Assembly (NCBI GenBank): GCA_016218785.1
Contig: JACRCY010000058.1
Span: forward strand, 1-37,699
From: Deltaproteobacteria bacterium
Lineage (GTDB): Bacteria > Myxococcota_A > Polyangia > JACRCY01
Length of the DNA stretch: 37,699 nucleotides
Reading direction: 5' to 3'
Below are positions 1-31,405 of this stretch, in pieces. Position numbers and translations under genes: made by a program. The notes beneath the pieces were generated by a model. That model worked only from the letters and a program-made list of their open reading frames with translations. It was not told the origin of the DNA and did not search any database. Every line of letters begins with the position of its first letter. The stretch's first letter is position 1.

Positions 1-1092
1 CCACGGCCAGTAGCCCGAGACGTGCGCGTAGTGGAACGGCCGGCGCGCGGCCTGCAGCAGGGCCGCGACGAGGTCGCGGCGGCTCTCGCCGGGCAGCCCG
101 ATCATGAAGTAGCCGGTCACCACCAGGCCGCGGCGCTTGGCGGCTGCGATCACGCCCCGCAGGCGCGCGGTCTCGATCGGGCGGCCGAGCTCCTGCCGCA
201 CTCGCTCGCTGCCGCTCTCGACCCCGAGGGCCAGGCGCTGTACCCCCGAGGCGGCCATGTCGTCGAGCAAGTCCTCGTCGAGCAGGTCGGCGCGGACCCC
301 GTTGGGCAGCTCGAGGATCGCGCCCGGGAGCCGGTGCCGAACGCCCTCCAGCAGCGCCGCGAACCAGGCGCGGTCGGCGAGCGGCTGCTCGTCCTCGAGG
401 AAGAAGCCGGTCACGTCCGCGTCGGCGGCCAGCGCGGTCATCTCGTCGAGGACGGCCGCGACGGGCCGGGCCCGGTGGCCGCCGGGCCGCCGGGGGACCG
501 GGCAGAAGGTGCAGGCGAACGGGCAGCCGCGCGATCCCTCGATCGCCGCGTAGCGCCGGCCCGCGCGGAGGGCGTGCCCCGAGTAGGCGGCGAGCGGGAA
601 GACCTCGCGATCGGCCGCGGGGATCCGCCCGGGCCGGAGCACGCCGCCCGGGGCGGTCTGCACGCGGCCGGCCTCTTCTCGGACCCACGCCCCGGCCACG
701 GGGCGCGACGCGCGCTCACCGGCGGCGAGCAGCGCTGGGACCACGGCCTCCGCATCACCCGTGACCGCGGCGTCGGCCCCGCCGGGTCCCACGAACCTGG
801 CCGGCGCGACCGCGGCCGCGGTCCCCACGACCGCCACGCGCCGGACCCCGCGCCGGCGCAGGTCGTCGACGAGGCGGAGGACCGTGCCGACGTTGCGGAT
901 GGAGCTGTCCACGACGGCGAAGCCCGGAGCGGGCCCGGCGAGGCACGCTAGGCCGCCCGGGGCGAGCCGCAGGTCGAGCCCGACGCAGTCGCTCCCGGCC
1001 GCGCGCAGCGCGGTGGCCAGCGACGCGAGGCCGAGCGGGTAGCAGGCCTCGAGCGCCACCTCCGGGGCTACGAGCAGGACGCGGTCGCTCAT
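1..1092 (-). CDS. B12-binding (class B) radical SAM enzyme, 3' end cut by window edge
   Basis: Not in the ORF track because its stop lies beyond position 1. Manual minus-strand translation from ATG 1092..1090 is open to position 1: MSDRVLLVAPEVALEACYPLGLASLATALRAAG... It has a Rossmann-like B12 region (VAVVGTAAAV..GDAEAVV), the rSAM motif IEGSRGCPFACTFC, GVESGSERV and IGLPGES. The start overlaps the upstream stop as ATGA (1089..1092). Confidence 0.85.
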   Translation of the reverse strand, partial: MSDRVLLVAPEVALEACYPLGLASLATALRAAGSDCVGLDLRLAPGGLACLAGPAPGFAVVDSSIRNVGTVLRLVDDLRRRGVRRVAVVGTAAAVAPARFVGPGGADAAVTGDAEAVVPALLAAGERASRPVAGAWVREEAGRVQTAPGGVLRPGRIPAADREVFPLAAYSGHALRAGRRYAAIEGSRGCPFACTFCPVPRRPGGHRARPVAAVLDEMTALAADADVTGFFLEDEQPLADRAWFAALLEGVRHRLPGAILELPNGVRADLLDEDLLDDMAASGVQRLALGVESGSERVRQELGRPIETARLRGVIAAAKRRGLVVTGYFMIGLPGESRRDLVAALLQAARRPFHYAHVSGYWPW

Positions 1093-5592: not shown

Positions 5593-5786
5593 GGTCGGGA
5601 TCCTGGCAGGACACCGTAGCGGCCACGGCTGGTCGGCGGACCCGTGGGAATCGGTGTTACCATGTGCCGATGGTCGGCCGCGCATCCGGGAGGCTCGCGC
5701 CTACGGGGAGCCTCGTGCGGCGGCCCCGCGCGCGCGCACGCACTTGGCATCCACCCTGGCGTCCCCGCCCGACGCTCGCCGTGATC

Positions 5787-7799
5787 ATGGCCCTGATCGC
5801 CGGCGCCGCCGTGCTGCAGGCCACCGTCGCCCGGGCGCAGTCCTACGTCATCCCACCCGGCCAGGAGGCGCTGCTGGCGGAGATGCTCGGGCGCGAGGCG
5901 GCGCTTCCCGACGGCTGCCGGTGGGCGCGGGCGTCCATCGACCTGTCGGTGGCCACGTCACACTACCTGTGCGGGTCGCCCGCGCGCGCCGTCTCCCTCA
6001 TACTGCGGCACCAGCAGGCCCCGGTTGCGGCGGGCGTGGCGACGCGCCATTTCGTCATCGGCCGCGGCGAGGGATCGCCCCCCGACGCGCTGCTCGCCGC
6101 CGTGGCGGAGCGCGTGCGCGCGAATGAGGGCCGGTGGCGCTGGGCCAAGGTCACCGAGCCGCCCCCGGTGCGGCTGCGTCCGGGGCAGTCGGTCCTCGCC
6201 TGGTTCGCCCGCTGGGACGTCGCCGTGCCCGCGCTCGCGTGGCTCGTTCTGCTGGCGTGGCTCGCGGCGAATGCCCGTCGACTGGTGGCGGCGCGACGCG
6301 ATGCGCTCGTCGCCGCGGCGTGCTTCGTCGTGGCCGCCGCAGTGGGGCTCGCGGTGCCATGGGGGCCGCTCGATTTCGCGGAACCCGAGCGACTGCAGGC
6401 GCTCTGGTCGACCTCGCCCGACCTCCAGGAGGACTTCGTCGCCATCACGCTCCCGCTCCAGCTCTTGCAGGCTGCCGGTGTCCCGGGAGGGGCGCTTGTG
6501 CGGGTCATCGGTCCTTTGTGGGGCGCGCTGTCCGTGACCGTCACCTACCTACTCGCGCGGAGCCTGGGCGCCGGCCGTCTGCCGTCGCTGGTCGCCGCGG
6601 CGGCGGTCTGTCTCCTGCCGGCGCACCTGCGGTACTCCGGGACAGTGCCCTTCACCATCGCCGGGGGGGCGCTCCTGGCCGGGGCCTGCGCGGTGGCCTG
6701 CAGCCGCTTCTCGCCCTGGCGCAAGCTGCCGTTCGTCGCGGCGGCGACGGTTCTGGCCGGGTACGCGCGTCCGGAGCTCGTCCTCACCGCCGCACCGCTG
6801 TCGCTCCTGGTGCTGGCGGACGGGCCGTGGGCGGTGCGGGCCGCGTGGGTGGCGCTGCTGCTCGTGGCGCTCGGCCCCCACGCATGGGACGTCGGCTTCC
6901 ATCGCACCCGGCCCGAGTTCACCGGGGGCTGGGGTGAGTTCGCGGTCGCTTCGCTGTGGGGCGCGCGCCTGGGAGCGGGCGCGCTCCTCGCCGTGGGCGC
7001 GGTCGGTCTGCTGGCGGGGCGTGCCCGATGGCTGCACCGCGCGGCACTGGCGTCGGCCGTGGCGGTGCTCGCCTGGGCCTACGCGCGGACGATCATGGAG
7101 GAGAACCCCCTTTGGGGACACTGGCGCTACGTCCTGTCCGGCGTGCCCCTGCTTGCGGTGGGCTTGGCCCTCCTGCTCGAGCGCGTGACGAACGCCAGGG
7201 CGAAACGGATCGCTGCGGCAACCGCGGCCGCCGTGCTGGTCGGGGCGCTATGGCTCGCACGCGAGGCGGTGACTCGTCCCATCGACATTCAGGTGGATTT
7301 TCAGTACGCGCGCGCCAGCGTCGGGAACGTCGTGTCGCGCTACCGGCACGTCGCGGTCGTGACGAGCGACGACCTGACCGGCTCGGCGCGCCGGAGCATG
7401 ATGGACGCGACGTCGTTGATGGCGTTTGGCCTCCGCCTGGGCCCCCTGGCGCGACCGGTCGAATGCCGAGCACAGCCGCTCCAGGCCGGGGTTCAGGTCT
7501 GGTCGCTCCGCGCGCTCCTCACGCGCTGTCCGGAGGCGCCGTCGCTCGCCGCCGCCGCCGTCTACCTGGGCGCCTACCGACCCGAGGCGGAGTTGGCCGC
7601 GCTCCGGGGCCGCTTCACGCTCGTGCCCATCGAAGAGCGCATGGTGTCGGCCGCCCCCGTCGCCCAGCGCTTCGACACCCAGTGTCCGCGGCTGCCCTTC
7701 CGCTTCGTGGGCGGCCGGCTACAGGACTGCCCGCTGCGGCTCGGGTGGTACCGGCTGGCTCCAGCGCCGCTGCCCTCCTCGGCTCCTGCCCGCGAGTAG
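5787..7799 (+). CDS. Polytopic membrane protein, possible GT-C-type glycosyltransferase, with N-terminal soluble module
   Basis: ORF 5664..7799. Start set at ATG 5787 (MALIAGAAVLQATVARAQS, signal/anchor-like); GTG 5781 or 5664 are possible. A ~110-aa soluble segment is followed by many hydrophobic helices (VPALAWLVLLAWLAA, ALVAAACFVVAAAVGLAV, LWGALSVTVTYLLA, AAWVALLLVALGP, LLAVGLALLL) and a ~190-aa C-terminal soluble domain. Function is inferred from topology and neighbours only. Confidence 0.55.
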   Translation: MALIAGAAVLQATVARAQSYVIPPGQEALLAEMLGREAALPDGCRWARASIDLSVATSHYLCGSPARAVSLILRHQQAPVAAGVATRHFVIGRGEGSPPDALLAAVAERVRANEGRWRWAKVTEPPPVRLRPGQSVLAWFARWDVAVPALAWLVLLAWLAANARRLVAARRDALVAAACFVVAAAVGLAVPWGPLDFAEPERLQALWSTSPDLQEDFVAITLPLQLLQAAGVPGGALVRVIGPLWGALSVTVTYLLARSLGAGRLPSLVAAAAVCLLPAHLRYSGTVPFTIAGGALLAGACAVACSRFSPWRKLPFVAAATVLAGYARPELVLTAAPLSLLVLADGPWAVRAAWVALLLVALGPHAWDVGFHRTRPEFTGGWGEFAVASLWGARLGAGALLAVGAVGLLAGRARWLHRAALASAVAVLAWAYARTIMEENPLWGHWRYVLSGVPLLAVGLALLLERVTNARAKRIAAATAAAVLVGALWLAREAVTRPIDIQVDFQYARASVGNVVSRYRHVAVVTSDDLTGSARRSMMDATSLMAFGLRLGPLARPVECRAQPLQAGVQVWSLRALLTRCPEAPSLAAAAVYLGAYRPEAELAALRGRFTLVPIEERMVSAAPVAQRFDTQCPRLPFRFVGGRLQDCPLRLGWYRLAPAPLPSSAPARE

Positions 7800-7901: not shown

Positions 7902-9458
7902 CTACAGCAGCTCGACGCGGACGTCCAGGCGACGGCAGCGTGCCGCGACGAGCTGGCGCAAGAGCTCGACCGGGGAGGAGGTGTCACCATGCGGCGCGGC
8001 CCGGGGGGAATCGCCGCCGAGGCACTTCCAGCACTGCTCGTCGTCGAGGGCGCGGTCCATGAGGCAGCGCCGTTCCGGGCCGGGGATGAAGTTCGAGGGC
8101 ACCGCGGCCTGCCGGCGCCAGAGCGCTAGGTGCTCGGCGATCACCGTGCGGGGCACGGACCAGGTCGGGGTCGGTTGCGCGCAGACTTCGACGGGGAGGC
8201 GCGCGGCGGCGGCCGCCGCGGCCGGCGGCACGGCACAGTCCCGCCGCGTCGCAGGCCCGCCACCCCACAGCACGGCGAGAAGGACGAGCCACAGGTAGCT
8301 CGGCCACCGGAGCCACGTGGTGCACATCGAGGGTAGGCCCAGCGCCAAGGCGATCGTGAACGCCGACCACAGGTGGTACCCGTACACCCCGTCGAAGCGC
8401 TTTCCGAGCACGGCCACCGGCGCCGCGACGACAAGCGCGAACAAGAGCAGGAAGCGCAGGGGTGGTCCGCCCCGGCGCAGGCGAAAGAAGAGTAGCAGCG
8501 GAACGACCAGACCTCCCCACGGCATCGACGCGGAGCCGCCGCGATCGCGAAGCCACGGCGTCACCATCTCCGTGCTCGACCGCGCGAGCTGCCGCAGCAT
8601 CGAGCCGGGAGAGAAATCGAGGTTGAAGGGGTGGGCCTCGCGGCTGCAGACCATCGGCAGGAGGGCGTAGACGGTCCACGTCCACAGGAGCGCGTGCGGC
8701 AGCAGTCGCAGGGCCACCGCGCGTGCGTGCGAGCGCCACGAGGGGGCCCGCTCGGCGATCCCGATGGTCAGCTCGTAGGCCACCAGCAGCGCGGGGTAGA
8801 CGATGAACGACTCCTTGTTGCCGACGCCGACCACCACCCCGAGGACCTCGATCACGAGCCACGGCCAGGCACCGGCGCGGGTCAACGCCCGGGCCCGCCG
8901 GAGGTAGCCGAGCGTCACGAGCAGGAACGCCGTCTGCACGAGGAGCTCGGTGAGATTGGACGGGTTGAAGGCGTTGTCGGCGAGGCCCGGAACCGCAACA
9001 AACACGAGCGCGGCGACGCCGGCCCACCGGCGCTCCACGCTCAGGGCCCGGGCGAGCGCGAAGACCAGGCCCGCGTTGAGGAGGTGCACCGCCAGGATGA
9101 CCAGGCCCCAGCGCGCGGCGGAGAGACCGGCGAGGGGCAGGAACGCGGCGATCTCGGGTCCCAGGCCGCCGCGCTGTACCGGCGCGGAGATCCCGAACGC
9201 CCACCCCGGCCGGAGGCCGCGGACGAGGTAGGCCATGTCGATGGTCGCGAAGCACACCTCGGCGACCGCTGCGGCGAGCTGTACGGCGAATGACACGACC
9301 AGGCCGGCGGCGATGCCGGTGAAGATATCCGCCTGGTCGAGTCGTCTCGGTTCGAGGCCCCTGGCGCGGCGGTAGACGAGCAGCGCGGCAGGGGTGAACA
9401 CCATCACCCCGACGACCGCGGCGACCAGCGCGGGTGCGTTGAGAACTACCCGGGGCAT
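7902..9458 (-). CDS. Polytopic membrane protein, likely GT-C (ArnT/PMT-like) glycosyltransferase
   Basis: ORF 7902..9614 trimmed to ATG 9458 (MPRVVLNAPALVAAVVGVMVF). 13-nt overlap with the upstream GT2 gene. At least 10 hydrophobic helices and a Cys-containing C-terminal soluble tail (CAVPP..CAQPT..RRCLMD..EQCWKC). The call rests on the classic pairing of a polyprenyl-phosphate-sugar synthase with a GT-C transferase. Confidence 0.55.
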   Translation of the reverse strand: MPRVVLNAPALVAAVVGVMVFTPAALLVYRRARGLEPRRLDQADIFTGIAAGLVVSFAVQLAAAVAEVCFATIDMAYLVRGLRPGWAFGISAPVQRGGLGPEIAAFLPLAGLSAARWGLVILAVHLLNAGLVFALARALSVERRWAGVAALVFVAVPGLADNAFNPSNLTELLVQTAFLLVTLGYLRRARALTRAGAWPWLVIEVLGVVVGVGNKESFIVYPALLVAYELTIGIAERAPSWRSHARAVALRLLPHALLWTWTVYALLPMVCSREAHPFNLDFSPGSMLRQLARSSTEMVTPWLRDRGGSASMPWGGLVVPLLLFFRLRRGGPPLRFLLLFALVVAAPVAVLGKRFDGVYGYHLWSAFTIALALGLPSMCTTWLRWPSYLWLVLLAVLWGGGPATRRDCAVPPAAAAAAARLPVEVCAQPTPTWSVPRTVIAEHLALWRRQAAVPSNFIPGPERRCLMDRALDDEQCWKCLGGDSPRAAPHGDTSSPVELLRQLVAARCRRLDVRVELL

Positions 9459-10216
9459 CGCCGTCGAAGGTGGGTGAGTCGGAAGGCCGCGGCGACCCGC
9501 ACCGCGCCCCAGAACCCTGCGACCAGGTCGCCCGCTCCTACCTTGGAGTCGCCCCCGAGCCGAGGCCCGTAGCGCGTCGGCACCTCGACGATCGCCAGGC
9601 CGCCGTCCACCCAATGGAGGAGCATCTCCAGCATGTAGAGGGGGCCCGTGTGCAGCGGAGCGAAGGAGAGGGCGAGCTCCGCCGCTCGCCGGTTGTAGAA
9701 GCGGTACGTGTTGCTGTGGTCACGAAGGCTCGTGCCCGCGATGGCGCGCACGAGCGCGTTGTACACGAAGCTTGCGAAGCGCCTCACGAGGGGCCGTCCC
9801 GGCGCCACGGCACCCGCGACGTACTTGGACGCCACGACGACGTCGCACCGCTGCGACGCCACCAGGTCCACGCCGTGGCTCAGCTCGCCCGGCGGCTGCG
9901 ACCCGTCGCCGTCCAGGTCGACGAACACCGTGGCGTCCGTGTTGGCGACCAGCCATTCGAGCCCGGCGCGTGAGGCGTCACCCCGATGGCAGCCGGGACC
10001 CGGCTTCGGTCTCTCGAGGAGCACGATCGACGCGCCGGCCTGCGCGAGCCGCCGCACGTAGTCCTGGGTGCCATCGGAGCTGCCGCCGTCCACGACGCAG
10101 ATGGTATGGCGCCGGCCGCGCAGCTCTCCGAGGAGGGTGGGGATCACCTGCTCGAGTGCCTGGCGTTCATTGTAGAGCGGCAGGTTGACCGCCACCGCTG
10201 CCTTGCGCGAGTCCAC
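9446..10216 (-). CDS. GT2-family polyprenyl-phosphate sugar synthase (DPM1/Ppm1/ArnC-like)
   Basis: 256-aa ORF with GTG start. Motifs: VNLPLYNERQALEQ, ICVVDGGSSDGT, VFVDLDGDGSQPP (DxD region), VVVASKY, RRFASFVYNALVR, YRFYNR, MLEMLLH, VEVPTRYGPRLGGDSKV. These fit the dolichyl/polyprenyl-phosphate mannose synthase layout. Confidence 0.85.
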   Translation of the reverse strand: MDSRKAAVAVNLPLYNERQALEQVIPTLLGELRGRRHTICVVDGGSSDGTQDYVRRLAQAGASIVLLERPKPGPGCHRGDASRAGLEWLVANTDATVFVDLDGDGSQPPGELSHGVDLVASQRCDVVVASKYVAGAVAPGRPLVRRFASFVYNALVRAIAGTSLRDHSNTYRFYNRRAAELALSFAPLHTGPLYMLEMLLHWVDGGLAIVEVPTRYGPRLGGDSKVGAGDLVAGFWGAVRVAAAFRLTHLRRRCPG

Positions 10217-11679: not shown

Positions 11680-12152
11680 TCACCGCCAGGTGCAGCAGCA
11701 GCGGAACGCGAGCGCCGTGGACGAGGCCGACGACGAGTACGCGTCGCAGCTACCGTTGCCGTCGGCGCGGTAGGAGCCCGCCCCGGAGGGGGACGAAGTC
11801 CATTCCCAGTTGTCCGTCATGTTGAAGAGCAGCATCGGCATCCCGTAGCAGGCGTCGTACCACTCCCCGTCGGCACAAAGACGCTTGCCGGCGGCGTCGT
11901 GCTCCACGCTTCGATCATCGACGGCCAGGCACCCACGGGCGGCATGTCGGAGCCGAAGGGCGCGGTCCACGCCGAGGGGATCGGCAGCCGGTCCACCGTC
12001 CTCTCGGGCTTCACCGTGCTCGGGTACGACGTCTCCTCGGCCACGGCCGACAACCAGGACGGCACGAACGGCGTCGACGGGTCGAACGGCGGCGGCGGCG
12101 GCTCGAGGGGCCCGGCGGAAATGCAGTTCAAAGCGCCCACGCACCTGGGCAC
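11680..12152 (-). pseudogene. FGE-sulfatase / C-type-lectin-fold-like domain protein, apparently frameshifted near 11900-11915
   Basis: The C-terminal part (frame of ORF 11680..12183) reads GKRLCADGEWYDACYGMPMLLFNMTDNWEWTSSPSGAGSYRADGNGSC..STALAFRCC. This resembles the GNVWEWT...GFRC end of FGE/SUMF1-type domains; third-position G/C is 18/20 at 11821-11880. Upstream, the coding signal switches to the frame of ORF 11817..12152 (20/20 at 12001-12060; ..DRLPIPSAWTAPFGSDMPPVGAWPS). No single intact frame spans both parts. Confidence 0.3.
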
Positions 12153-12167
12153 GAGTGACGCCGCCCG

Positions 12168-15100
12168 TCAGCGCTCGATGCAACGCAGGAGCAGCTCGAT
12201 GGCGCGCCGCCTGGGTTCCGTGTCGGGCGGCGTCGCCGGCCGGTAGGACACGGCGAACCTGGTCCCGGCAAGGAAGCAGCGCTGCGCTCGCGCCCGTGGC
12301 TCGATGAAGAGGGCCATGGAATCACTCGACGCCTGCAAGTGCACGGAGACCGCGTACTCCTCGAACGCGAGGTTGGAGATCGCGAAACCGGCGAGGCGAC
12401 GACTCGCCGGCGCATGCGTCGAGTACGGGCGCAGGCGCTGCGCGATGTGCCTCTGCCACGGCTCCGGCGCGGGGCTGGCGGCCAGCCAGGGCGAGCGCTC
12501 GATGGGAGGTGGGGCCATGATCTGCTCGTCGGTGAGGACGAGAGGGGTGGGCCCGGCCAGCGCCAGGTAGTCGGGGTGGAGGCCGCGGCACTCGTGTGTC
12601 AGGTCGCAGCCGCCGCAGAGTTCCGGTGGCTGCGCGCCCCTCGACGCGGGGCCCCGTGCGTGGTCACCAGCGGCGACGAACTCGAGTCCCGGGATCATCC
12701 GCAGCGCACACAGCGGAACGTCGGCCGCACGGAGCCTGAAGTCCGGCACCCGGCGTCTGATCTCGCGCATGGCCCAGGCGACCTCGCCCAGTCGCGGCCA
12801 GAGCAGGTCGACGCGCTTGCGGTCCATTCCGGCGACGAAGTGCATCAGGCAGCCGTGCGTGACCGCGGGGTGCGGGCCATCCGCCCCGAGCCCGGCGATC
12901 CGTCCGCAGTCCGCCACGATGCTCGCCATGGCCGGCCGCAGGAACATGGTCGCGAGCCGCACCCGCAGCCCAAGCCGGCGGCAGTTCTCGAGCGCGGCGA
13001 GCTTGGCCTCGGTCGCGCCGGCCAGGCCGAAGAGGAGGTCCGACAGCTCGCGATCGAAGCTGATGAAGGTCAAGAAGACGTCGGTGAGACCACGCCGCGC
13101 GAGGTCCGCCGCGAAGCCGGCCTCCGCCAGGCGCATGCCCGTCGTCGACAGGTGGATGCGCGAGAAGCCACGTTGGCGGGCGAGATCGATGAGTTCGGGC
13201 AGCGCGGGATGCGTGGCCGGCTCCAGGTGGGAGCCGAAGCCGATGCTCGAGGCGCCTCGCTCGTGGAGTAGCTCGATCTGGCGCCGCACGTCGTCGTGTC
13301 GGTCGTGCTCCCCGGCGGCCTGCTCGGTGTGGTCGCTGCACCAGGCGCACTGGAGGTCGCAGGGGCCGCGCACGGCCAGGAATCCCGCCGTCGTCACCGG
13401 GTCCGCCTGGTACGGCCGCGGCAAGGACGCGACCCACCGCCGCTCCTCGCCCTCGGCCGTGGGCCGGCGGGCGCAGAACCGCAGGTCCGCCAGCCGCCGC
13501 CAGAGCTCGGGCTGGACGGCCGCCTCGTGCCACCACAAGAAGACCCGGCCGCCCACCGCCGCGTGCAGTCTGCCCCGGCGAAGCACCAGCAGGTTCTGCT
13601 CCTCGACGACCATCTCGTCGCCCTCGGCGACGAGGCGGAGGAGATACCCTCCCCCGCTGACCCTCCCCGGTCGATAGCGGAAACGCGCGCGCGGATCGTC
13701 GTCCGTCACCAGCTCGAGCGCTCCCTCTCGCTCGCCGACCAGCATCGCCCAGGGGTTGCGCAGGCTGCGCAGCGACTCCTCGACCGCCGCCGCGCCCCAG
13801 CGCTCACGGGCGGCAGCGACCAGCGCCTCGGCCCCCGCGAGCGTCTCGCCACAGGTGAGCGAACAGGGGAGGTGCGAGATCCAGGCGCCGCTGGCCGGGT
13901 TGGGCAGCCACGGGACCGCGCCGGGCTGGGCCAGACGCAACCGGATCGAGTGCCAAGTGTAGCTCCTTCGCTCGCGATTCGGAGTGCTCGCGAACTTCCG
14001 GGTACAGCACCGTGGATAGCCGAGCAGCCTCCCGAGCTCCTCGGCGGTCGCGAGCGAGGCGGTCTCGTCGGCGCACTCCTCCTCCGCCGTGGTCAGGCGC
14101 ACGGCTACCTCCACCTGTCGTCTGTCGCGGCCGATGAATAGTTCACGGGCCGTCGTGCCTGGCAGGCGGCGGTACTCGACGACTGGCGCGAATCGCTGCA
14201 GCCACGCCGCGTCAGGCGTCTCGCCGGGCTCGAGCCGGATCACGGGCTTGGCCCCGATCTCGAACGCCAGGTAGTGCGAGCACGATGGTCCGAGGGCATC
14301 GCCGGCCGGCGCGGCGGGCCCTGAGCGCTCCGCTACGGCCGCCGGGGGGACCTCCACCCGTGAGTCGTCCGTCGCGAGCCAGGTACGGGCCCTACCGAGG
14401 AGTTCCCGGGGCTCGACGCGATCAGGGGCCTCGATCACCGCGTCGACCAGGGCTCCCGCGAGCGCCAGGCGATCTCGAGCGGCCGGTACCTCCCGCCGGA
14501 GCGCCTCGACGTCGGCGGCCAGCGCGTCCCCCTGACCGCCGACGCCTTCGTCGATGCGTAGGAACAAGCTGGCCACGGCGTCGAGCGCGGCGCAGGCGCT
14601 CCGCCAGGGCGTCTCGTCGGCATAGAACTCGCGCCCCGCGGTGTCGAGCAGTCGGTCGGGGTAGGCGGGGACGAGGAGCCCGTCGCGCTTGGCCAGCGCG
14701 AAGAGCGGCAAGCCGGGGTACAGTCGCAGCCGCGACGTGAGCAGCTTGCCGCAGACGCCCTCGAGCCCCCCCGACCCGCTCATCGCCAGGTTGAGCGCCA
14801 GGTGCTCCGGCTTGGTCCACGGCGTGAGCAGGATCAGGCTCAAGCCGCCGTGCGCGTGGAAGCCGAACTCGCGCGGGTAGAGCGCCTCGAGCTCGAAGAG
14901 GGTCTGAGCCGCCAGCAGGTTCTCGCCCCACCCGATGCCCTTGTTGAACAGGTCGAGCTCTTCTCCGACGAAGCTCTCGATCCCGACCAGACACACGTGC
15001 AGCTTGTGCGAGCTGCCGGCCAGCGAGCGCAGCGCCCGCTCCAGCGCCGGGCGGCACGCGAGCAGGCGGTCGGCACGCGCGTCGAGCAGGAAGTCGGCAC

Positions 15101-15932
15101 CCGGCATGCTCAGCGACCGGGCGAGCTGCGCCAGTTGCTCGACCTCATCGAGTAGTCGCTCGCCGACCATGCGGATCGCGAGCCGGGGGTAGGGCGGGTG
15201 AGTCTCGACCAGGGCCTCGAGCTGGAGCCGCATGGACGCGACCGTGTCGGGGCGCCACGTCGGGTCGGGGCTCTTCCTGGTGCAGAAGGAGCAGCCGCCG
15301 CTGCGCAGGCAGCCCGAGTGATCGAGACCGGCGAGCCGAGGATTGTCGGCGAAGGCTCGCGCGTACGTGCACTCCTGCCCGCACACCACGAACGGCAGGG
15401 GCTGCGTCCTCGCCGTTGCGACATTGCCGGCCCTCCACCCGTAGTCGGGTCGCACGGCAATGAGGCGCCCGGGGTCCGCCGCGTGCGGCTCGAGACCGAG
15501 GAACCGGCACAGCGCCGGGGCCGTCGCGTCCACCGCCTCGAAGCACTCGTCGCCCGCCCCGAGTTGCCAGTGGCCGGCCTCCAGCATCCCGTAGCGCGGC
15601 CGCTCCCCCAGGACGGCGAGCAGGCGCGCCAGCTCGCCGCCCGGCGGGTGGCTGAACAGCACGTGCGTGGGGCGCGTGGACGTCAGGATCTCCACGAGGC
15701 GACGGCGATCCTCGACGCTGAAGTCCACCCCCGGCCCGGCAGCGTCGAGCCGGCAGCTCGCGGGGACCCCGAAGCGCACCCAGTCGGTGCCGACCATCCG
15801 GCCGCGCACGAAGCCTTGGACGTACGGCAGGAGCCATGCCCGGTGGAAACGATTGGTGACGATGACCTCGACGAGCAGGAGCGACACGGCCGTCACAGGT
15901 CGCAGTCTACATCGTCCATGCGGCGGTCGCAT
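12168..15932 (-). CDS. Giant multidomain fusion: N-terminal rSAM-like domain (CX5CX2C), central Cys-motif domain (GYPRCC..HLPCSLTC), C-terminal canonical rSAM with CxxCx5CxG motif, terminal shared module
   Basis: ORF 12168..16205. Start placed at ATG 15932 (GTG 15896 is an alternative). N-domain: HSGCLRSGGCSFCTRK (15282..15311) and VGIESFVGEELDLFNKG. Centre: LLGYPRCCTRKF..ISHLPCSLTCGET (13836..14033). C-domain: LAVRGPCDLQCAWC (13338..13361), then LCGGCDLTHECRGLHPDY. The last 77 aa form the shared module. Confidence 0.8.
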   Translation of the reverse strand: MRPPHGRCRLRPVTAVSLLLVEVIVTNRFHRAWLLPYVQGFVRGRMVGTDWVRFGVPASCRLDAAGPGVDFSVEDRRRLVEILTSTRPTHVLFSHPPGGELARLLAVLGERPRYGMLEAGHWQLGAGDECFEAVDATAPALCRFLGLEPHAADPGRLIAVRPDYGWRAGNVATARTQPLPFVVCGQECTYARAFADNPRLAGLDHSGCLRSGGCSFCTRKSPDPTWRPDTVASMRLQLEALVETHPPYPRLAIRMVGERLLDEVEQLAQLARSLSMPGADFLLDARADRLLACRPALERALRSLAGSSHKLHVCLVGIESFVGEELDLFNKGIGWGENLLAAQTLFELEALYPREFGFHAHGGLSLILLTPWTKPEHLALNLAMSGSGGLEGVCGKLLTSRLRLYPGLPLFALAKRDGLLVPAYPDRLLDTAGREFYADETPWRSACAALDAVASLFLRIDEGVGGQGDALAADVEALRREVPAARDRLALAGALVDAVIEAPDRVEPRELLGRARTWLATDDSRVEVPPAAVAERSGPAAPAGDALGPSCSHYLAFEIGAKPVIRLEPGETPDAAWLQRFAPVVEYRRLPGTTARELFIGRDRRQVEVAVRLTTAEEECADETASLATAEELGRLLGYPRCCTRKFASTPNRERRSYTWHSIRLRLAQPGAVPWLPNPASGAWISHLPCSLTCGETLAGAEALVAAARERWGAAAVEESLRSLRNPWAMLVGEREGALELVTDDDPRARFRYRPGRVSGGGYLLRLVAEGDEMVVEEQNLLVLRRGRLHAAVGGRVFLWWHEAAVQPELWRRLADLRFCARRPTAEGEERRWVASLPRPYQADPVTTAGFLAVRGPCDLQCAWCSDHTEQAAGEHDRHDDVRRQIELLHERGASSIGFGSHLEPATHPALPELIDLARQRGFSRIHLSTTGMRLAEAGFAADLARRGLTDVFLTFISFDRELSDLLFGLAGATEAKLAALENCRRLGLRVRLATMFLRPAMASIVADCGRIAGLGADGPHPAVTHGCLMHFVAGMDRKRVDLLWPRLGEVAWAMREIRRRVPDFRLRAADVPLCALRMIPGLEFVAAGDHARGPASRGAQPPELCGGCDLTHECRGLHPDYLALAGPTPLVLTDEQIMAPPPIERSPWLAASPAPEPWQRHIAQRLRPYSTHAPASRRLAGFAISNLAFEEYAVSVHLQASSDSMALFIEPRARAQRCFLAGTRFAVSYRPATPPDTEPRRRAIELLLRCIER

Positions 15933-16012
15933 GGGTCTCGTGGCCGTCGTCCTCGACCCGGAAGTGGCCGAGAAGATCGTGCGCCACCTGTTATGCCGAG
16001 TCGTCGGTTGTC

Positions 16013-16026
16013 CGGAGTCGACTCCG
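16013..16026. promoter_or_regulatory. Perfect 14-bp palindrome (candidate operator) in the divergent intergenic region
   Basis: CGGAGTCGACTCCG is its own reverse complement. It lies ~85 bp upstream of ATG 15932, next to three CACCGG motifs at 16047-16089. Confidence 0.3.
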
Positions 16027-16392
16027 TCGGGAGACGTGTGTGTCGCCACCGGTGACGCCGGGTACCAGTTCCACCGGAAACACCGGTGTCCAGGGACCCA
16101 CCCGGTAGCGGCGAGCCCGTGTGCCCCGGGAGCGGCCGCGAGCGTGTAACGCGTGATGGCGGTGCCGCCCGCGGCGCGCGGGGCCGCCGGCGGGGGGAGG
16201 GCCACCGCCGCGCCCAGGGAGTGGTGTGCATGGCTGGGGCTGATCGGGGCGGCGCCAGCGTAGGCCGCCAGCTCGCGGCGGCGACGGGCGAACCGTCAAT
16301 GATCTCGGGAACTACGAGTTCTGGCGAGGCACAGGCACCGGGCGTCCGTCCATAAGCGCAACTGGTCAACCCGCGCCGCGGATGCTACCTAT

Positions 16393-17838
16393 GTGCCGTG
16401 GTGCGATAGGCCAGTGAAGAGCCCGGCGTCGGCATTGATGCTGCATCCCCCGCGCCTCCTCCGGCAGCAGGCCGAGATCATGGCCATGCCGATGGGGTTG
16501 CTCTCCATCGCCGACCTCCTGGCGGCCAGCGGCGTGCCCACGGAGGTCGTTCACCTCGGCCTGGAGCGCGACACGAGCCCCGGCTTCGACCCGGCGGCCG
16601 ACGTCCTCGCGACCGGGGCCGGCATCGTCTTCATCACGCTCCACTGGCACGCGCAGGTGAGGCCGGCGCTGCTCCTGGCCGAGACCCTCCGGCGCCGGGC
16701 CCCCGGCGTGGTGATCGCGGTGGGCGGCTACACGGCCTCGTACTTCGCCCGCGAGCTGCTCGAGCACTTCGCGGCCGTCGACTACGTGATCCGCGGTGAC
16801 GGCGAGCTGCCCGCGGTGCGGCTCTGCGCCGCCGTCGCCGGTGGCCCCGACGACCTGGGCACGGTGCCCAACCTCGCCTGGCGCGAGCGGGGCGAGGTCC
16901 GGCTCAACCCGCTCAGCTGGCAGGTCGACGAGCACAACGCCGCGGGCCTGCGCCACGCGGCCTTCGAGCATCTGCGCCACAGCGCCGCCTACCTCGAGCG
17001 CCATCTCTACTCGGACTTCTCCGAGGGCCGCGCCTCGCCGACGCCCTCCCACACCTTCTTCTACAATCCCGGGCGGGGCTGCCCCGTGCGCTGCACCTGC
17101 TGCGGCGGCGGGGCCGGGGCGCAGCAGACCATCAGCGGACGATGCGGGTTCTTCTTCTACCCGGACGACAAGGTGCGGCGCGATCTGGCGGAGGCCTGGG
17201 CCGCCGGCGCCCGCACCTGGCGGGTCTCGTTCGACCCGACGGCCAGCCGGACCGCGTACACCGCCATCTTGAGCGCCGAGCAGGCGGCCGGCCGGTGCTG
17301 GCACTTGGTGTTCGACTGCTGGTCGCTCCCCACGGCAGAGCTCCTCCAGGGCCTGACTCGTACCTGCGAGCCGGGTTCCATGCTGGTGATCTCGCCCGAG
17401 TGCGGCGACGAGGACCTGCGTCGCCGGCACCGCGGCTACCACTTCACCAACGCGGCGCTCCTCGAGGCCGTGCGCGGGGCCGGCGCCGCCGGATTCGAGA
17501 CCCACGCGTTCTTCACGGTCGGGCTGCCGGGCGAGACCACGGGCATGATCGAACGCACGACCAGTCTGGCCAAGGATCTGGTCGACGCCGGTGCCGGTGT
17601 CTCGGTGTGCCCCATGGTGCTCGACCCGGGGTCGCCGCTCTTCGAGTCTCCGCACGAGTTCGGGGTCACCCTGAGGGTGCGCAACCTGCGGGACTACTTC
17701 AACCTCAGTCCGAACGACCCGGGGCCGTTCTACCGCACCGAGCATCTCTCGGAGCTCGACATCCGCGCGGCGGCGAAGCGCCTCGCCTGGTTGTCGGCGC
17801 ACACGGCCGACGCGCGGCGCCATGGGGCGGACTCGTGA
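16393..17838 (+). CDS. B12-binding (class B) radical SAM enzyme
   Basis: 481-aa ORF with GTG 16393; GTG 16414 or ATG 16438 are alternative starts. Motifs: MLHPPRLL..MPMGLLSIADLLAASG, VIAVGGYTASYF, YVIRGDGELP, NPGRGCPVRCTCC (CX3CX2C), FTVGLPGETT. The stop overlaps the next start (GTGA). Confidence 0.85.
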   Translation: MPWCDRPVKSPASALMLHPPRLLRQQAEIMAMPMGLLSIADLLAASGVPTEVVHLGLERDTSPGFDPAADVLATGAGIVFITLHWHAQVRPALLLAETLRRRAPGVVIAVGGYTASYFARELLEHFAAVDYVIRGDGELPAVRLCAAVAGGPDDLGTVPNLAWRERGEVRLNPLSWQVDEHNAAGLRHAAFEHLRHSAAYLERHLYSDFSEGRASPTPSHTFFYNPGRGCPVRCTCCGGGAGAQQTISGRCGFFFYPDDKVRRDLAEAWAAGARTWRVSFDPTASRTAYTAILSAEQAAGRCWHLVFDCWSLPTAELLQGLTRTCEPGSMLVISPECGDEDLRRRHRGYHFTNAALLEAVRGAGAAGFETHAFFTVGLPGETTGMIERTTSLAKDLVDAGAGVSVCPMVLDPGSPLFESPHEFGVTLRVRNLRDYFNLSPNDPGPFYRTEHLSELDIRAAAKRLAWLSAHTADARRHGADS

Positions 17839-19547
17839 GGGTCGTCCTCTGCGCCGGCACTCCGGCCGAGCATGCCATCGGCAGCCTCGATGCCACGGGG
17901 TCGAGAGACTTCGCCGCCGACAGCTACAGCTACGCTATCGGGCTCCTCAAGGCCTGCGCGCTCGCGGATCCCGACGTGGCGGCCGGGCTGGAGATCGGCC
18001 TCAAGGAATTCCCTGTCGGCCGCTCCCAGCTCTCGCTCATCGAGGAGCAGTTGCAAGAGATCCTGGCCGAGCGACCGGACGTGGTCGGCTTCTCCACCTA
18101 CTGCTGGAGCCTCGACCTCTTCCTCGACGCGGCCGCCCGGCTCAGACGCGAGCTCCCCGAGTTGCTGATCGTCATGGGTGGCCCCTCCGTCTCGCATGAG
18201 GCGCGCGCCCTGCTCGAGGCCCACCCGCAGGTGGACATCATCGTGCGCGGCGAGGGCGAGCTCGCGTTCGCCGCGCTGTGCCGGCAGCGCTTCCGCGCGC
18301 CCGCGGAGGTCCCGAACGTAGCCTGCCGTGGAGCCGACGGGCGAGTCTCCGAGCACCCGGCAGAGGATGCGCCGGAGGATCTCTCCGCGCTGCCCTCCCC
18401 GTACCTTACAAGGACGCTGCGGCCGAGGGCACGGAGCCTGCTCATCGAGCCGTCCCGTGGCTGCCGTTTCCGTTGCGGCTTCTGCTCCTGGTCGACGCGC
18501 GCGGGCCAGCTTCGCTACCAGCAGCCCGCGCGCATTGCGCAAGAGATCCGCTGGGCGCGCGAGCACGGCTACCGGGGGGTCAACTTCTGCGACACGGCCG
18601 TCAACCACGACACCGGGCAGCTGCGCAGCCTCTGCGACACCATCCGTGCCGAGGATCCGGAGGGGCGCCTGTCCCTGTCGCTATTCCTGCGGCACGAGGA
18701 GCTCGACGCGGAGCAGCTGGAGATCCTCGCGCGCATCCGTTGCGACGAGATCATCATGGGGCTCGAGTCGACCAACGCCGCCGCGCTCCGCGCCTGCGGC
18801 AAGCCGCCCCTCGACCCGTCCACCTTCGAGGAGAAGCTCGCGGGACTGCGCGCCGCCGGACACCGGGTCACCCTGAGCATCATGTCGGGGCTGCCAGACG
18901 ACTCGCTGGCGGGCTTCGCGTCGACCCTCGAGTACCTCGAGGGGCTGCTGCAGCGGCAGCCCGACGCCGTGAACTTCGTGTGCTGCTTCTGGCTCGCCGT
19001 CTTGCCCGGCACTCGCTTCGCCGAGCTCAGGGAGCGCTACGGTTTCCGCATCGAGCCTCGCGGAACGCCCTACCTCCTGGAGAGCCGTGATTGGTCGCCC
19101 GAGGAGCTCGAGGCGGCGGCCCGCCTCCTCGTCGAGAAGGCGCAGCGCGACCCGCGATTCCGGTGCGAGGAGATCCACCGCGCAGTCGTCGCCATGGCGC
19201 TGGGAGAGACCGCGGTGGCGCACGCGGCCGGGGAGCTGGCGCCGCAGGAAGCGCTGCTGCGGCCGTGGCGGGTCGGCGAGACCCGTGGGGGTTGGGTCCT
19301 GGTGGAGATGCGCGCCGCGCCACCCTCCGAGGGTCTGGCGACGGCTTGCTTCGAGCCGGCCCCTGGCACGCCTGGCACCGCCATCCACGTCACCATCGCG
19401 GCGCGCGATGACCGCCGGCCGGCCTTCGCCCAGACCCGGTCCCACAGCGTCTACTACCGCGGCCGTCCCCGCAGCCATGCCGCCCTCGAGGCCCTCGGGC
19501 ACCTCCTGGAGCAGGTCGTGGAGCTCATCGGCGCGAACGAGACGTGA
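17835..19547 (+). CDS. B12-binding radical SAM enzyme (LPSPYL paralog family) with C-terminal shared module
   Basis: Frame of ORF 17142..19547 trimmed to GTG 17835 (VRVVLCAGTPAEH). Motifs: VVGFSTYCWSL, IVMGGPSVSHEA, IIVRGEGELAF, LSALPSPYL, EPSRGCRFRCGFCSW, MGLESTNAAAL, IMSGLPDDSLAGFASTLEYL. The C-terminal 86 aa (19287..19544) form the shared module. Confidence 0.9.
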   Translation: MRVVLCAGTPAEHAIGSLDATGSRDFAADSYSYAIGLLKACALADPDVAAGLEIGLKEFPVGRSQLSLIEEQLQEILAERPDVVGFSTYCWSLDLFLDAAARLRRELPELLIVMGGPSVSHEARALLEAHPQVDIIVRGEGELAFAALCRQRFRAPAEVPNVACRGADGRVSEHPAEDAPEDLSALPSPYLTRTLRPRARSLLIEPSRGCRFRCGFCSWSTRAGQLRYQQPARIAQEIRWAREHGYRGVNFCDTAVNHDTGQLRSLCDTIRAEDPEGRLSLSLFLRHEELDAEQLEILARIRCDEIIMGLESTNAAALRACGKPPLDPSTFEEKLAGLRAAGHRVTLSIMSGLPDDSLAGFASTLEYLEGLLQRQPDAVNFVCCFWLAVLPGTRFAELRERYGFRIEPRGTPYLLESRDWSPEELEAAARLLVEKAQRDPRFRCEEIHRAVVAMALGETAVAHAAGELAPQEALLRPWRVGETRGGWVLVEMRAAPPSEGLATACFEPAPGTPGTAIHVTIAARDDRRPAFAQTRSHSVYYRGRPRSHAALEALGHLLEQVVELIGANET

Positions 19548-22213: not shown

Positions 22214-23910
22214 TCGTGCCTCTCGATCGCGGCGGCGATCCACTTCAGCAAACGACCGACCGATGGATCGCTACCCAGGGAGCCATCGTCCGGATCGCCT
22301 CGCGGCGCCAGCCACAGGAGATCATGCCGCGGCGTCCGGAGGAAGCACGGGCGCGCCTCGTCCCGTCGCCGGACCTGGACCTCGAGTTGCCGGCCCTGCT
22401 TCTCGAGGCGCAGCACCGGCCACCCCGCCATCGAGGCTCTCCCCCGCAGGACCCACCCTTCGGCCACCTCGGCTCCCGGCGCGAGATCGGGCAACAGGGT
22501 GCCGAGGTCGAGCGCCCCATCGCCTTCGAGGCCGAGGCGGGCCGCCGGGGCCGAAGGCGGCGTCAGATCCTCGAGGCCCGCCAGGTGCCGACCGGGCCAA
22601 GGATCCTCCCACAGGAAGAGGTCTCGCGCCTCGTGCTCCATCATGAAGCGCACCGCTCGCGCCAGATCCCGCTCCGGGAAGCTCGTGCTGGCGCGAAGGT
22701 AGGGAGCGCCTGGGCGCACCGTCTCGATCCCGAGTTGGCCGCGCTGTGCGTCGAAGGCCGACCCGGGCGTCACGATCATCCAGAACACGCGGACCGCCTT
22801 GATCCGGTCGCGCCGCCCGCGCACGCGCAGCCGCGCGAGGTAGTCGAGGGTCCGGCGGAACCCGTCGAGGCTGTCCGCCGGGATGCCTAGGATCACCGAG
22901 ATCGTCACCGGCCCGAGGACGCTCAGCGACTCGATCGCGCCTTCGAACCGGCTCTCGTCGAGAGGGCTGCGTCCGATGGAGCGGAGCACGGCGGGGTCCA
23001 CGCTCTCGAGCCCCACGTTGAGCTCGTGCGGTCGGATGCCGGAGAGGATCTCGACCTGCTCCTGGCGGAAGTGCTGGTGGCTGATGAAGAAGCTGAAGGC
23101 GACGCGCTGGCCCGGGACCTCGGCGCGGATGGCCTCCGCCAGCGCGCCCATGCGGGCCTCGTCGAAGTTCAGCGCCGAGTCGAGGATGAACACGTGGTCG
23201 CAGCGCCGCTCGACGGCGAAACGGACCTGATCGCGCATCACGGCGGGCGCGAAATACCGCACCTTTCCCATGAAGTTCTTCCAGGCGCAGTACTTGCATC
23301 GGAAGACGCAGCCGCGGGAGTACTCGAGCATGAGGTTGCTGCGCGGGGGATCGATGAGGCCGCCGAGGTACGGGGAGGGGAGCGTGCCGAGGTCGGCGAT
23401 CGGTGGTCGGGGCGCCGATTCGCGGAGGCTGCCGTCGGCCTCGCGCCACGCGAGGCCCGGGATCGCGCCCGCGTCCCCGAGGCCGCGCTCCAGCACCTCG
23501 GCGAGCGTCTCCTCGCCCTCGCCCAGCACGACGGCGTCGAGGGCCGCGAATCGCTCCAGGGTGGCCCGCGGCGCGAAGGTGACCGACGGGCCGCCGGCGA
23601 GGATGCGCACCCGCGGCGACAGTTGCTTCACTCGACGAACCACGGGCTCGAAGGCGTCCAGATCCCAGCAGAAGAGCGAGATGCCCACGACCTCGGGATC
23701 CGAGGCCAGGATCTCCTCGGCGGCCCGCGTGGGGAGGACGGGGTCGGCGAGGTCGAGCGGGAACTCCCGAATCGCCACCTCCACGTCGGGACGCCGGCCC
23801 GCGGCGTAGGCGGCGAGCGCCGGGAGAGCCAGGTTGTACCGCCGCGCCTCGGGGCCGGTGCCCGGGTGCTGCACCGCCGTGCCGGCAAGCGCGAGGCGTT
23901 TCGGCATCAT
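22210..23910 (-). CDS. B12-binding radical SAM enzyme (LPSPYL paralog family) with C-terminal shared module
   Basis: ORF 22210..24951 trimmed to ATG 23910 (MMPKRLALAGTAV). The upstream 347 aa of the ORF are Arg/Pro-rich read-through across the neighbouring gene. Motifs: VVGISLFCWDL, ILAGGPSVTF, VVLGEGEETL, LGTLPSPYL, EYSRGCVFRCKYCAW, VGLESVDPAVL, ILGIPADSLDGFRRTLDYL. The C-terminal 83 aa (22213..22461) form the shared module. Confidence 0.9.
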   Translation of the reverse strand: MMPKRLALAGTAVQHPGTGPEARRYNLALPALAAYAAGRRPDVEVAIREFPLDLADPVLPTRAAEEILASDPEVVGISLFCWDLDAFEPVVRRVKQLSPRVRILAGGPSVTFAPRATLERFAALDAVVLGEGEETLAEVLERGLGDAGAIPGLAWREADGSLRESAPRPPIADLGTLPSPYLGGLIDPPRSNLMLEYSRGCVFRCKYCAWKNFMGKVRYFAPAVMRDQVRFAVERRCDHVFILDSALNFDEARMGALAEAIRAEVPGQRVAFSFFISHQHFRQEQVEILSGIRPHELNVGLESVDPAVLRSIGRSPLDESRFEGAIESLSVLGPVTISVILGIPADSLDGFRRTLDYLARLRVRGRRDRIKAVRVFWMIVTPGSAFDAQRGQLGIETVRPGAPYLRASTSFPERDLARAVRFMMEHEARDLFLWEDPWPGRHLAGLEDLTPPSAPAARLGLEGDGALDLGTLLPDLAPGAEVAEGWVLRGRASMAGWPVLRLEKQGRQLEVQVRRRDEARPCFLRTPRHDLLWLAPRGDPDDGSLGSDPSVGRLLKWIAAAIERHE

Positions 23911-31280: not shown

Positions 31281-31405
31281 CTCGGCCTCGCCGCGCGGGG
31301 CGCGGGCCCGGCGCGCCGGAGGCGGTCGCTGGTGCTCCAGTCCGCACCGGAACCTTCGCTCACTGTTCGACGGGCGAGGAGCAACGCGTCACGCTCGACT
31401 GGCTC

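Follow-up and report, generated by a model that had tools for sequence, protein, structure and literature searches.

Can a single bacterial protein carry two different radical SAM (S-adenosylmethionine) domains, and if so, what might such a protein do? This question is raised by a gene on the minus strand of contig JACRCY010000058.1, from a Deltaproteobacteria bacterium (assembly GCA_016218785.1). We analyzed the whole stretch of 37,699 nucleotides, which we refer to as the window. The gene (the target) is real: it is a single open reading frame (ORF) that encodes a 1,242-residue protein with two different radical SAM domains, a DUF483-type center, and a small shared module. The reading that we lean towards, with moderate confidence, is that the product is a multi-center enzyme from a suite of radical SAM enzymes that is associated with nitrogenase-like Nfl proteins, that it carries out two radical steps, and that the module serves for docking. 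The target is an elaborate variant in a widespread family, and in a type of gene cluster that was already flagged in the literature, rather than something categorically new.

A single gene with five structural units

The G+C content of the window is ~72%. On the minus strand, the frame of the target is free of stop codons across 12168..16295, and the G+C content at third codon positions (GC3) is 0.8–1.0 from ~15910 down to the stop codon, in one frame throughout and with no frame switch. The original prediction, which was made from the sequence alone, began the gene at the ATG at 15932. In most of the 12 codons after this ATG, the third base is A or T (CGA, CAT, GGA, TGT, AGA, and others), with low GC3 between 15932 and 15897, and the N termini of relatives align at a GTG at 15896 (“MTAVSLLLVEV”). 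Because of these low-GC3 codons and the position of the family’s N terminus, the gene probably starts at GTG 15896 rather than further upstream at ATG 15932. The 1,242-residue product has the same sequence as NCBI MBI5477769.1 (“MAG: radical SAM protein [Deltaproteobacteria bacterium]”, where MAG stands for metagenome-assembled genome). Note that we number residues by the 1,254-residue frame, in which ATG 15932 is residue 1 and residue n is encoded by 15932-3n+1 to 15932-3(n-1). The motif coordinates that were given earlier were all exact when we re-checked them, but where three or four parts had been counted, we found five structural units (Table 1).

The N-terminal unit resembles cobalamin-dependent radical SAM enzymes

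Three comparisons bear on the fold of the first unit. First, a profile of 28 family members matched OxsB among the PDB sequences (E = 7.9e-7), and the match runs across the GGCxFC, GIES, and NKG motifs. Second, we modeled residues 13–840 with AlphaFold2 (AF2). The model of these 828 residues has a predicted local distance difference test score (pLDDT) of 88 and a predicted template modeling score (pTM) of 0.90, and in the N-terminal subdomain, strands alternate with helices at high confidence. In a Foldseek comparison to the PDB, the best matches of this model were OxsB (3.4e-9), TokK (1.7e-5), and CysS (4.8e-5), followed by MiaB and LipA; the alignments to OxsB, TokK, and CysS span ~600–630 columns. 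Third, hhalign against the window’s six B12-binding radical SAM proteins gave a probability of 95.8% (E = 6.6e-9) over 334 columns, which include both the Rossmann part and the barrel. As modeled, the first domain is a radical SAM-type fold that is like the cobalamin-dependent enzymes. The original prediction had proposed an N-terminal radical SAM-type barrel and had named the lack of a radical SAM fold prediction around the N-terminal cysteines as grounds for giving it up. We checked this, and the domain does have a predicted radical SAM fold, with support for the barrel from the PDB profile match, from AF2 with Foldseek, and from hhalign.

The likeness that had been suggested for this domain, to YhcC/TIGR01212-type enzymes, did not hold up: TIGR01212 is not among the NCBIfam matches at E ≤ 1, and the relatives that we found are cobalamin-type (class B) radical SAM enzymes. 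(No NCBIfam model matches the first domain of the target.) The first ~500 residues of the target are like the class B enzymes OxsB (5UL2), TokK (7KDX), and CysS (9N1B) in having, by prediction, a Rossmann-type N-terminal subdomain and a partial TIM barrel whose cluster loop follows strand 1, together with GIES- and NKG-type motifs and a helical C-terminal bundle; the Foldseek matches behind this likeness have E values of 3.4e-9 to 6e-5. The differences are also substantial. The sequence identity of the target to these enzymes is just 12–14%; the target’s family has C-X25-C-X2-C instead of CX3CX2C, and the canonical first cysteine is dispensable in the family; PF02310 is unmatched in the target and cobalamin binding is only putative; and a DUF483 domain and a new module follow.

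The cluster loop itself is well conserved. Among 184 relatives, C188 is present in 179 of 179 copies, C214 and C217 are each present in 181 of 181 copies, and the spacing between C188 and C214 is X24–26 in 169 of 179 copies (94%). In contrast, only 76 of 174 copies (44%) have C208. Because C188, C214, and C217 are invariant with tight spacing and C208 is not, we consider C-X25-C-X2-C to be the cluster signature of the family. In the hhalign alignments, C208 lies opposite the canonical first cysteine, so that CX5CX2C lies opposite CX3CX2C. Thus, the CX5CX2C that had been proposed as the cluster motif stands as the positional homolog of the canonical motif but not as a motif of the family, in which C208 is not conserved. 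Other residues of the first domain that are invariant or nearly so are R254, G257, G317, E319, F321, and K331.

A DUF483-like center with four near-invariant cysteines

A DUF483-like four-cysteine center had been proposed tentatively, and this is borne out by matches to the Pfam model in the family and by the conservation of the cysteines. Pfam’s DUF483 (PF04467) matches the target with 18.0–18.7 bits (E = 0.002–0.003), which is under the gathering cutoff of 25 bits; it reaches E ≤ 0.01 in 24 of 28 relatives, with 1.3e-8 as the best value. From these comparisons, the center appears to be a relative of DUF483 that falls under the threshold for a scored member. Of 166 aligned copies, at least 165 have C642, and the same is true for C643, C690, and C694. 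Y639, P640, R666, and P689 are also near-invariant in the family, and the CC pair is mostly 43–48 residues from the next cysteine. The region with GYPxCC ... PCxxxC fits the model, at model positions 36–97. Unlike the model, which has 122 positions, the target’s domain has ~270 residues, or twice the length, with an extra beta-rich part that ends in WWH.

The central domain is modeled with a pLDDT of ~85–97, and an AF2 model of the DUF483 domain plus tail from the homolog P0006 has a pLDDT of 89. (P numbers refer to homologous proteins and L numbers to homolog loci.) Judging from the pTM of 0.90 of the 828-residue model, the domains appear to be packed in a fixed way, with the DUF483-like domain against the barrel. 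A Foldseek search with the DUF483 plus module model of P0006 found nothing at E < 1e-3 in either the PDB or BFVD; the best fold match was the cysteine methyltransferase NleE (E = 0.07, probability 0.94), which is a lead only. Our literature search for PF04467 found nothing, and a tblastn search with the central domain found no match in phage genomes. DUF483 has been reported to be genetically linked to radical SAM genes in Thermus phages and in cyanobacteria, and InterPro already records DUF483 fused to radical SAM or methyltransferase domains (bioRxiv 10.1101/2024.08.14.607894).

A second, canonical radical SAM domain

The proposal of a canonical second radical SAM domain was confirmed by its CX3CX2C motif and by matches in two databases. 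Residues 858–996 match Pfam’s Radical_SAM (PF04055) with 42.7 bits, as compared to a cutoff of 29.5 (E = 8.8e-11), and the best match among PDB sequences is GDGT-MAS (7TOL; E = 1e-9). In NCBIfam, 14 families match at E ≤ 1, all of them on residues 850–1008. The best of these matches are TrsS, PqqE, Tes, HxsC4, and MoaA, and all are far under their cutoffs (for example, 61 versus 490 bits for TrsS and 34.6 versus 500 bits for HxsC4).

The second domain shares CX3CX2C, a GxGxEP-like motif, and TTG with the SPASM/twitch radical SAM enzymes (GDGT-MAS/Tes 7TOL, TrsS, PqqE, MoaA, and HxsC), and like them, it has a downstream cysteine group, which consists of CX2CX5C and one upstream cysteine. Unlike in these enzymes, there are four downstream cysteines instead of seven, and the domain is embedded inside another enzyme. 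More precisely, the seven-cysteine pattern of SPASM is not reached, as the target has only C1075 and CX2CX5C, and the fourth position is His1119. Pfam’s SPASM (PF13186) has no match in the target. From the arrangement of these cysteines, a single twitch-like auxiliary cluster is possible. The pattern P-x-C ... CX2CX5C-x-G-(L/V) recurs in the window’s module-radical SAM protein (described below), in the radical SAM proteins encoded downstream in L001 and L002, and in P0068.

No other retrieved sequence has a second radical SAM domain between DUF483 and the module, although close relatives of the inserted domain are thinly sampled. Two radical SAM domains in one chain are known from FbiC, which is a fusion of CofG and CofH. 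FbiC and another protein of the window (25340..27655) are like the target in that they have two putative SAM-cleaving domains per chain, which presumably act sequentially on one substrate. In contrast to both, the radical SAM domains of the target are split by DUF483, the cluster loop of the first domain is non-canonical, and a shared module is at the terminus.

A small module shared by five proteins of the window

The original prediction ended the protein with a “shared module.” We found the module at the C terminus of the target and at four further sites in the window (Table 1). To find the copies, we used a hidden Markov model (HMM) of family tails and iterated it; the copies are undetectable without profile HMMs. 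When we searched the window with the target by tblastn, no paralog scored E < 0.01, and a permissive rerun gave only noise.

Of the 162 copies in the family proteins that we retrieved, 151 are C-terminal. L001 has the module on the C terminus of a 658-residue paralog of the first domain and on the N terminus of the product of the radical SAM gene downstream of the core. In a confident AF2 model of the P0006 tail, the predicted structure of the module is a helix, five strands, and a helix. A profile of the module had no match in Pfam or among PDB sequences. We also considered whether the module is related to HxsD, and rejected this, as hhalign gave a probability of 0.3%.

One of the copies is in a gene that is easily overlooked. 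On the minus strand, 23994..25328 is a 444-codon gene under longer overlapping frames, and its product has an N-terminal module followed by an HxsC-like radical SAM domain with a CX2CX5C tail. A frameshift that we had suspected near 25300 was resolved as this separate gene. In L001 and L002, its ortholog is the next gene downstream of the core gene; in P0068, it is part of one protein with the core.

Table 1. Features of the target gene and copies of the module in the window (AF2, AlphaFold2; HMM, hidden Markov model).
Feature	Position	Strand	Residues	Evidence or remark
Whole gene	12168..15896	-		GTG start, 1242 codons + stop
Rossmann-like subdomain, counterpart of the cobalamin-binding domain of class B radical SAM enzymes (predicted)	15438..15896	-	13-~165	AF2, Foldseek, hhalign
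First radical SAM barrel with VGE, VGIESF, and NKG motifs (predicted)	14553..15410	-	~175-460	profile, Foldseek, hhalign
Expanded cluster loop C188-X25-C214-X2-C217, containing C208	15282..15371	-		conservation counts, hhalign
CLRSGGCSFC	15282..15311	-	208-217	
Low-confidence linker from first radical SAM unit to central domain	14295..14363	-	~524-546	AF2 pLDDT <50, model residues 512-534
Central DUF483-like domain	13467..14288	-	~549-822	alpha/beta N-terminal part, helical region with the four cysteines, beta-rich C-terminal part that ends in WWH
LLGYPRCC...HLPCSLTCGET	13836..14033	-	634-699	
Four-cysteine signature GYPxC642C643 ... PC690xxxC694, putative Fe-S or Zn site	13851..14021	-		conservation counts
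Second, canonical radical SAM domain between center and tail	12558..13394	-	~847-1125	C858-X3-C862-X2-C865 at 13338..13361
CDLQCAWC	13338..13361	-	858-865	
C1075 ... C1106-X2-C1109-X5-C1115-x-G-L, putative auxiliary-cluster motif (partial SPASM or twitch-like)	12588..12710	-		
CGGCDLTHEC		-	1106-1115	
Module copy 1, C terminus of target, last ~90 residues	12171..12455	-	~1160-1254	family-tail HMM, E 2e-27
Module copy 2, N terminus of module + HxsC-like radical SAM protein (23994..25328)	25050..25301	-		HMM, E 4e-7 to 3e-9
Module copy 3, C terminus of B12-binding radical SAM protein ending 27646 (Pfam B12-binding + Radical_SAM)	27673..27960	-		HMM, E 9e-6 to 1e-8
Module copy 4, partial match, C terminus of B12-binding radical SAM protein ending 22210	22288..22515	-		HMM, E 1.7e-4 to 9e-8 after iteration
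Module copy 5, C terminus of B12-binding radical SAM protein 17835..19547	19245..19514	+		HMM, E 2e-7, only after iteration

The target is a variant in a large family

How unusual is this architecture? Relatives of the target are ~900–950 residues long and 30–44% identical, and they cover residues 13 to ~820 and then the tail. Because none of the 26 aligned relatives has residues in the columns of the second radical SAM domain, the standard architecture of the family is radical SAM + DUF483 + module, which we refer to as the core. An HMMER scan of 1.84 billion representative sequences found 646 clusters (at 50% identity) with E ≤ 1e-30, and most of these are full-length at ~930 residues. Because the core is itself a large family, only the inserted second radical SAM domain is peculiar to the target. 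So far, the core family is found only in metagenomes and MAGs, and no Pfam or NCBIfam model describes it. The original prediction also held that no characterized enzyme has the target’s architecture. This agrees with our searches, which found none among the PDB sequences, NCBIfam, Pfam, or the literature searched. Within that literature, the family, the C-X25-C-X2-C motif, the partnership with DUF483, and the module are undescribed.

Other fusions are found in the family. P0068 joins the core to the module-radical SAM protein; P0062 and P0090 are core + module + B12-binding radical SAM; P0147 and P0150 join the core to a different radical SAM domain and modules; and P0050, P0142, and P0155 are tandem cores. 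In L005, a domain like the target’s second radical SAM domain forms the C terminus of a 952-residue protein that is encoded directly upstream of the core gene. The recurrence of fusions to different types of radical SAM proteins argues that the core works together with radical SAM partners.

L001 also encodes two paralogs of the first domain that lack DUF483: one of 658 residues, with a C-terminal module (5625..7601, minus strand), and one of 697 residues (17180..19273, minus strand). Because of these, we conclude that the atypical radical SAM unit also stands alone in the same type of cluster. Separately, the “Pseudomonadota bacterium” MAG JBDRIT01 has three loci with a core-family gene (L008, L011, and L017), which suggests paralogous expansion within a genome.

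Is the fusion an artifact?

The exact architecture is represented by one sequence on one MAG contig, and a scan of JGI metagenomes with peptide patterns from the second radical SAM domain and the tail did not find a second example or a relative. If the 1,242-residue ORF arose by an assembly or sequencing error, or is a very recent pseudo-fusion, then there would really be two genes, of which one encodes a core without a tail and the other encodes a radical SAM domain with a module and starts at the GTG of V847. Both kinds of protein exist: P0095 and P0122 are cores without tails, and radical SAM proteins with a C-terminal module are encoded in the window. Furthermore, the junction at V847 (13386..13394, minus strand) holds CCGGTGACG, in which a weak AGGCGG precedes an in-frame GTG that overlaps a TGA in the +1 frame, giving the GTGA that is classic for junctions of translationally coupled genes, and “MTTAGFLAVRGPCDLQCAWC” is a plausible N terminus for a normal radical SAM protein. 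Also, an apparent frameshift in the gene directly downstream (11680..12152) points to an indel or pseudogene on the contig.

However, the target’s reading frame is free of stops, and an artifact would need one substitution that erased a stop codon. GC3 in the frame of the target is 0.97 across residues 812–850 (versus 0.76 and 0.66 in the other frames) and 0.94 across residues 1120–1170; overall, the other frames have GC3 of 0.56–0.76. At the junctions, every stretch is translated in the frame for which its codons are selected. Finally, the family commonly has independent fusions in which other radical SAM domains are joined to the core at this position. We therefore consider it unlikely that the fusion is an artifact. 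As for the GTGA at V847, it could be left over from an ancestral two-gene arrangement, or it could be an internal start site.

The neighborhood resembles group VI nitrogenase-like loci

Overall, the window encodes 15 radical SAM domains in 13 proteins, and nine of these proteins have a B12-binding domain or are like B12-binding radical SAM proteins. It also contains two genes of the nitrogenase component 1 type (Oxidored_nitro; NflD/K-like), which are on the plus strand at 31490..34905 and are 15.6–19 kb from the target. In L001 and L002, the core gene is surrounded by a NifH-like gene, two Oxidored_nitro genes, and many radical SAM genes, and 7 of the 17 homolog loci have an NflD/K pair no more than 10 kb from the core gene. 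All 15 of the genome matches are MAGs, and they are assigned to Polyangiaceae, Polyangiales, Myxococcales, Anaeromyxobacteraceae, “Deltaproteobacteria,” Elusimicrobia, and “Pseudomonadota.”

Loci of this kind have been described before. Méheust and colleagues (2020) describe a novel group of paralogs of nitrogenase with up to 13 radical SAM genes, several of which are fused to B12-binding domains; the hosts are Elusimicrobia, Gracilibacteria, and 14 Myxococcales genomes; and they predicted that a tetrapyrrole is reduced to yield a novel cofactor (bioRxiv 10.1101/765248). A 2026 review in Chemical Reviews still lists group VI under “unknown cofactor synthesis” (PMC13474568). The window is like these group VI loci in both gene neighborhood and host range and differs from them in having no NflH. 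The target’s family, the fusion to DUF483, and the shared module are undescribed in the text of the preprint that was searched (bioRxiv 10.1101/765248).

A different interpretation of the neighborhood is that the target belongs to an expanded HXS-type antiphage system, in which radical chemistry would mature a protein effector rather than make a cofactor or metabolite. HXS is proven to act against phages, and its HxsB and HxsC mature HxsA; it has four genes in the canonical order D-B-C-A, and 99.7% of the systems are from Pseudomonadota (PMC13128918). In the window, 34902..37144 (minus strand) matches HxsB with 526 bits (cutoff 370) and, as a borderline case, HxsD with 49.4 bits (cutoff 50). 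In L001, a gene for HxsD is next to a small radical SAM gene, within the operon that also holds the Nfl-like genes, and there are weak matches to HxsC or HxsC4 in the target’s second radical SAM domain and in two other radical SAM domains of the window. On the other hand, a six-frame search of the window found no HxsA or other ORF with His-x-Ser repeats, the window has no canonical HxsC, and the D-B-C-A order is broken. In NCBIfam, HxsC (TIGR03977) has no match in the target, and ~19 kb separate the target gene from hxsB and hxsD. None of the 17 homolog loci has HxsB and just 1 has HxsD, and neither 15 radical SAM domains nor nitrogenase-like genes are features of HXS, which is a four-gene system that is almost confined to Pseudomonadota. 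Given this evidence, we think it very unlikely that the target belongs to an HXS-type system.

A proposed role in the Nfl-associated suite

How might the target work? Each radical SAM domain would bind a [4Fe-4S] cluster and would cleave SAM to give a 5'-deoxyadenosyl radical. The two SAM-cleaving sites would be formed by C188 or C208 together with C214 and C217, and by C858, C862, and C865. There would also be two auxiliary sites, namely the four cysteines of the DUF483-like domain and C1075/C1106/C1109/C1115, each of which would hold an Fe-S cluster or zinc near its active site. (At least three or four Fe-S or metal sites had been expected, and four cysteine-based sites are plausible from the sequence.) With two radical SAM sites and two auxiliary sites, we infer that the protein would therefore carry out two different, successive radical steps on one substrate. 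The module would dock the enzymes that bear it, which are the target and four others, onto a common substrate, carrier, or scaffold. The pathway would be that of the radical SAM suite with the nitrogenase-like NflD/K, for which the proposal in the literature is a novel cofactor that may be derived from a tetrapyrrole. The substrate may be a small molecule such as a tetrapyrrole, or else a peptide or protein.

A bolder form of this proposal is that the ~930-residue core is a new class of radical SAM enzyme, in which the barrel, with its C-X25-C-X2-C loop, and the four cysteines of DUF483 form one composite active site. The module would then be a previously unrecognized docking or recognition element that gathers more than 10 radical SAM enzymes and the group VI nitrogenase-like reductase into an assembly line for a cofactor or natural product, and the fusion in the target would reveal two adjacent steps. 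We regard this as possible but doubtful. The role of the module would be analogous to that of the recognition element of RiPPs (ribosomally synthesized and post-translationally modified peptides), but its predicted fold (helix, five strands, helix) differs.

Several observations weigh against the proposed role of the target. No member of the family is biochemically characterized. Pfam’s Radical_SAM (PF04055) has no match on residues 1–560 of the target at E ≤ 1, and just 2 of 28 relatives reach E ≤ 0.01; Pfam’s B12-binding (PF02310) has no match in the target or in the 28 relatives. The third cysteine ligand of the first cluster, alongside C214 and C217, would be either C188 or C208, and this ambiguity counts against the proposal as well. 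The four cysteines of the DUF483-like domain could be a structural zinc site. The docking role of the module is suggested by its distribution among proteins. The module has no detectable homolog. The setting matches that of the group VI nitrogenase paralogs and their radical SAM suite, with the group VI label taken only from gene context and host taxa, and unlike L001 and L002, the window has no NflH/NifH-like gene. The rarity of the exact architecture, discussed above, is another such point.

Some of the same observations might mean that the first radical SAM-like domain is an inactive scaffold, so that only the inserted domain is catalytic and the N-terminal ~830 residues are an Fe-S or zinc adaptor; the weak Pfam matches and the loss of the canonical first cysteine (C208) in 56% of relatives point this way, but C188, C214, and C217 are strictly invariant (in 179–181 copies) with tightly conserved spacing, the GE, GIES, and NKG motifs that are typical of active class B and Elp3-type radical SAM enzymes are invariant, and most family members lack the second radical SAM domain, which would leave this conserved machinery with no catalytic center, so we see little chance that it is correct.

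If the target is instead a multi-center enzyme of the Nfl-associated suite, as we prefer, then its family gives a handle on the group VI Nfl pathway, which has been an open problem since 2020. The handles are a widespread core enzyme that has no name, a conserved cluster motif, and a module that marks the enzymes that belong together. The family is also the first strong functional context for DUF483. The natural fusions, of which the target is the most elaborate, indicate which radical SAM steps are physically coupled. And if the module is a docking element, then it can be used to mine for such clusters and to delimit them.

Other genes in the window

The first of the two NflD/K-like genes in 31490..34905 has an N-terminal extension of ~260 residues with no match in Pfam. 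Just before this pair, 29430..31388 (minus strand) encodes a fusion of a radical SAM domain (SPASM-family-like by NCBIfam) with a class I SAM-dependent methyltransferase domain. The two radical SAM domains encoded by 25340..27655 (minus strand) are a half that is like B12-binding radical SAM proteins, at the N terminus, and an HxsC/MoaA-like half, at the C terminus. Homologs of this two-domain protein adjoin the core gene in L001 (761 residues) and in L005 (952 residues). A gene for a B12-binding and radical SAM protein at 1..1086 (minus strand) runs off the start of the window and is included in the count of 15 radical SAM domains. The window also contains a DUF362-ferredoxin gene, a GT2 glycosyltransferase gene, a gene that is like UDP-glucose dehydrogenase, and a gene for a beta-propeller protein. 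A scan with Rfam and a scan for promoters and terminators found nothing.

In 11680..12152 (minus strand), which is directly downstream of the target, GC3 is 0.93–1.0 in the frame of 11817..12152 until ~11900 and is then 0.90–0.97 in the frame of 11680..12183. Because of this frame switch at ~11900, the contig probably carries at least one indel or pseudogene; the shift could reflect a pseudogene, an indel in the assembly, or a programmed shift. We considered a likeness to the C terminus of FGE-sulfatase domains, but Pfam gives no support for it. The joined product would have ~155 residues, with a lipobox-like “GALNC” near the N terminus and a cysteine-rich end (“...AFRCCCTWR”), and it has no Pfam match.

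Two other genes with good codon bias have no match in Pfam or NCBIfam: 5550..7799 (plus strand, 749 residues) and 7902..9719 (minus strand, 605 residues). The product of 5550..7799 has a short stretch in common with an unannotated protein of 437 residues that is encoded in L001.

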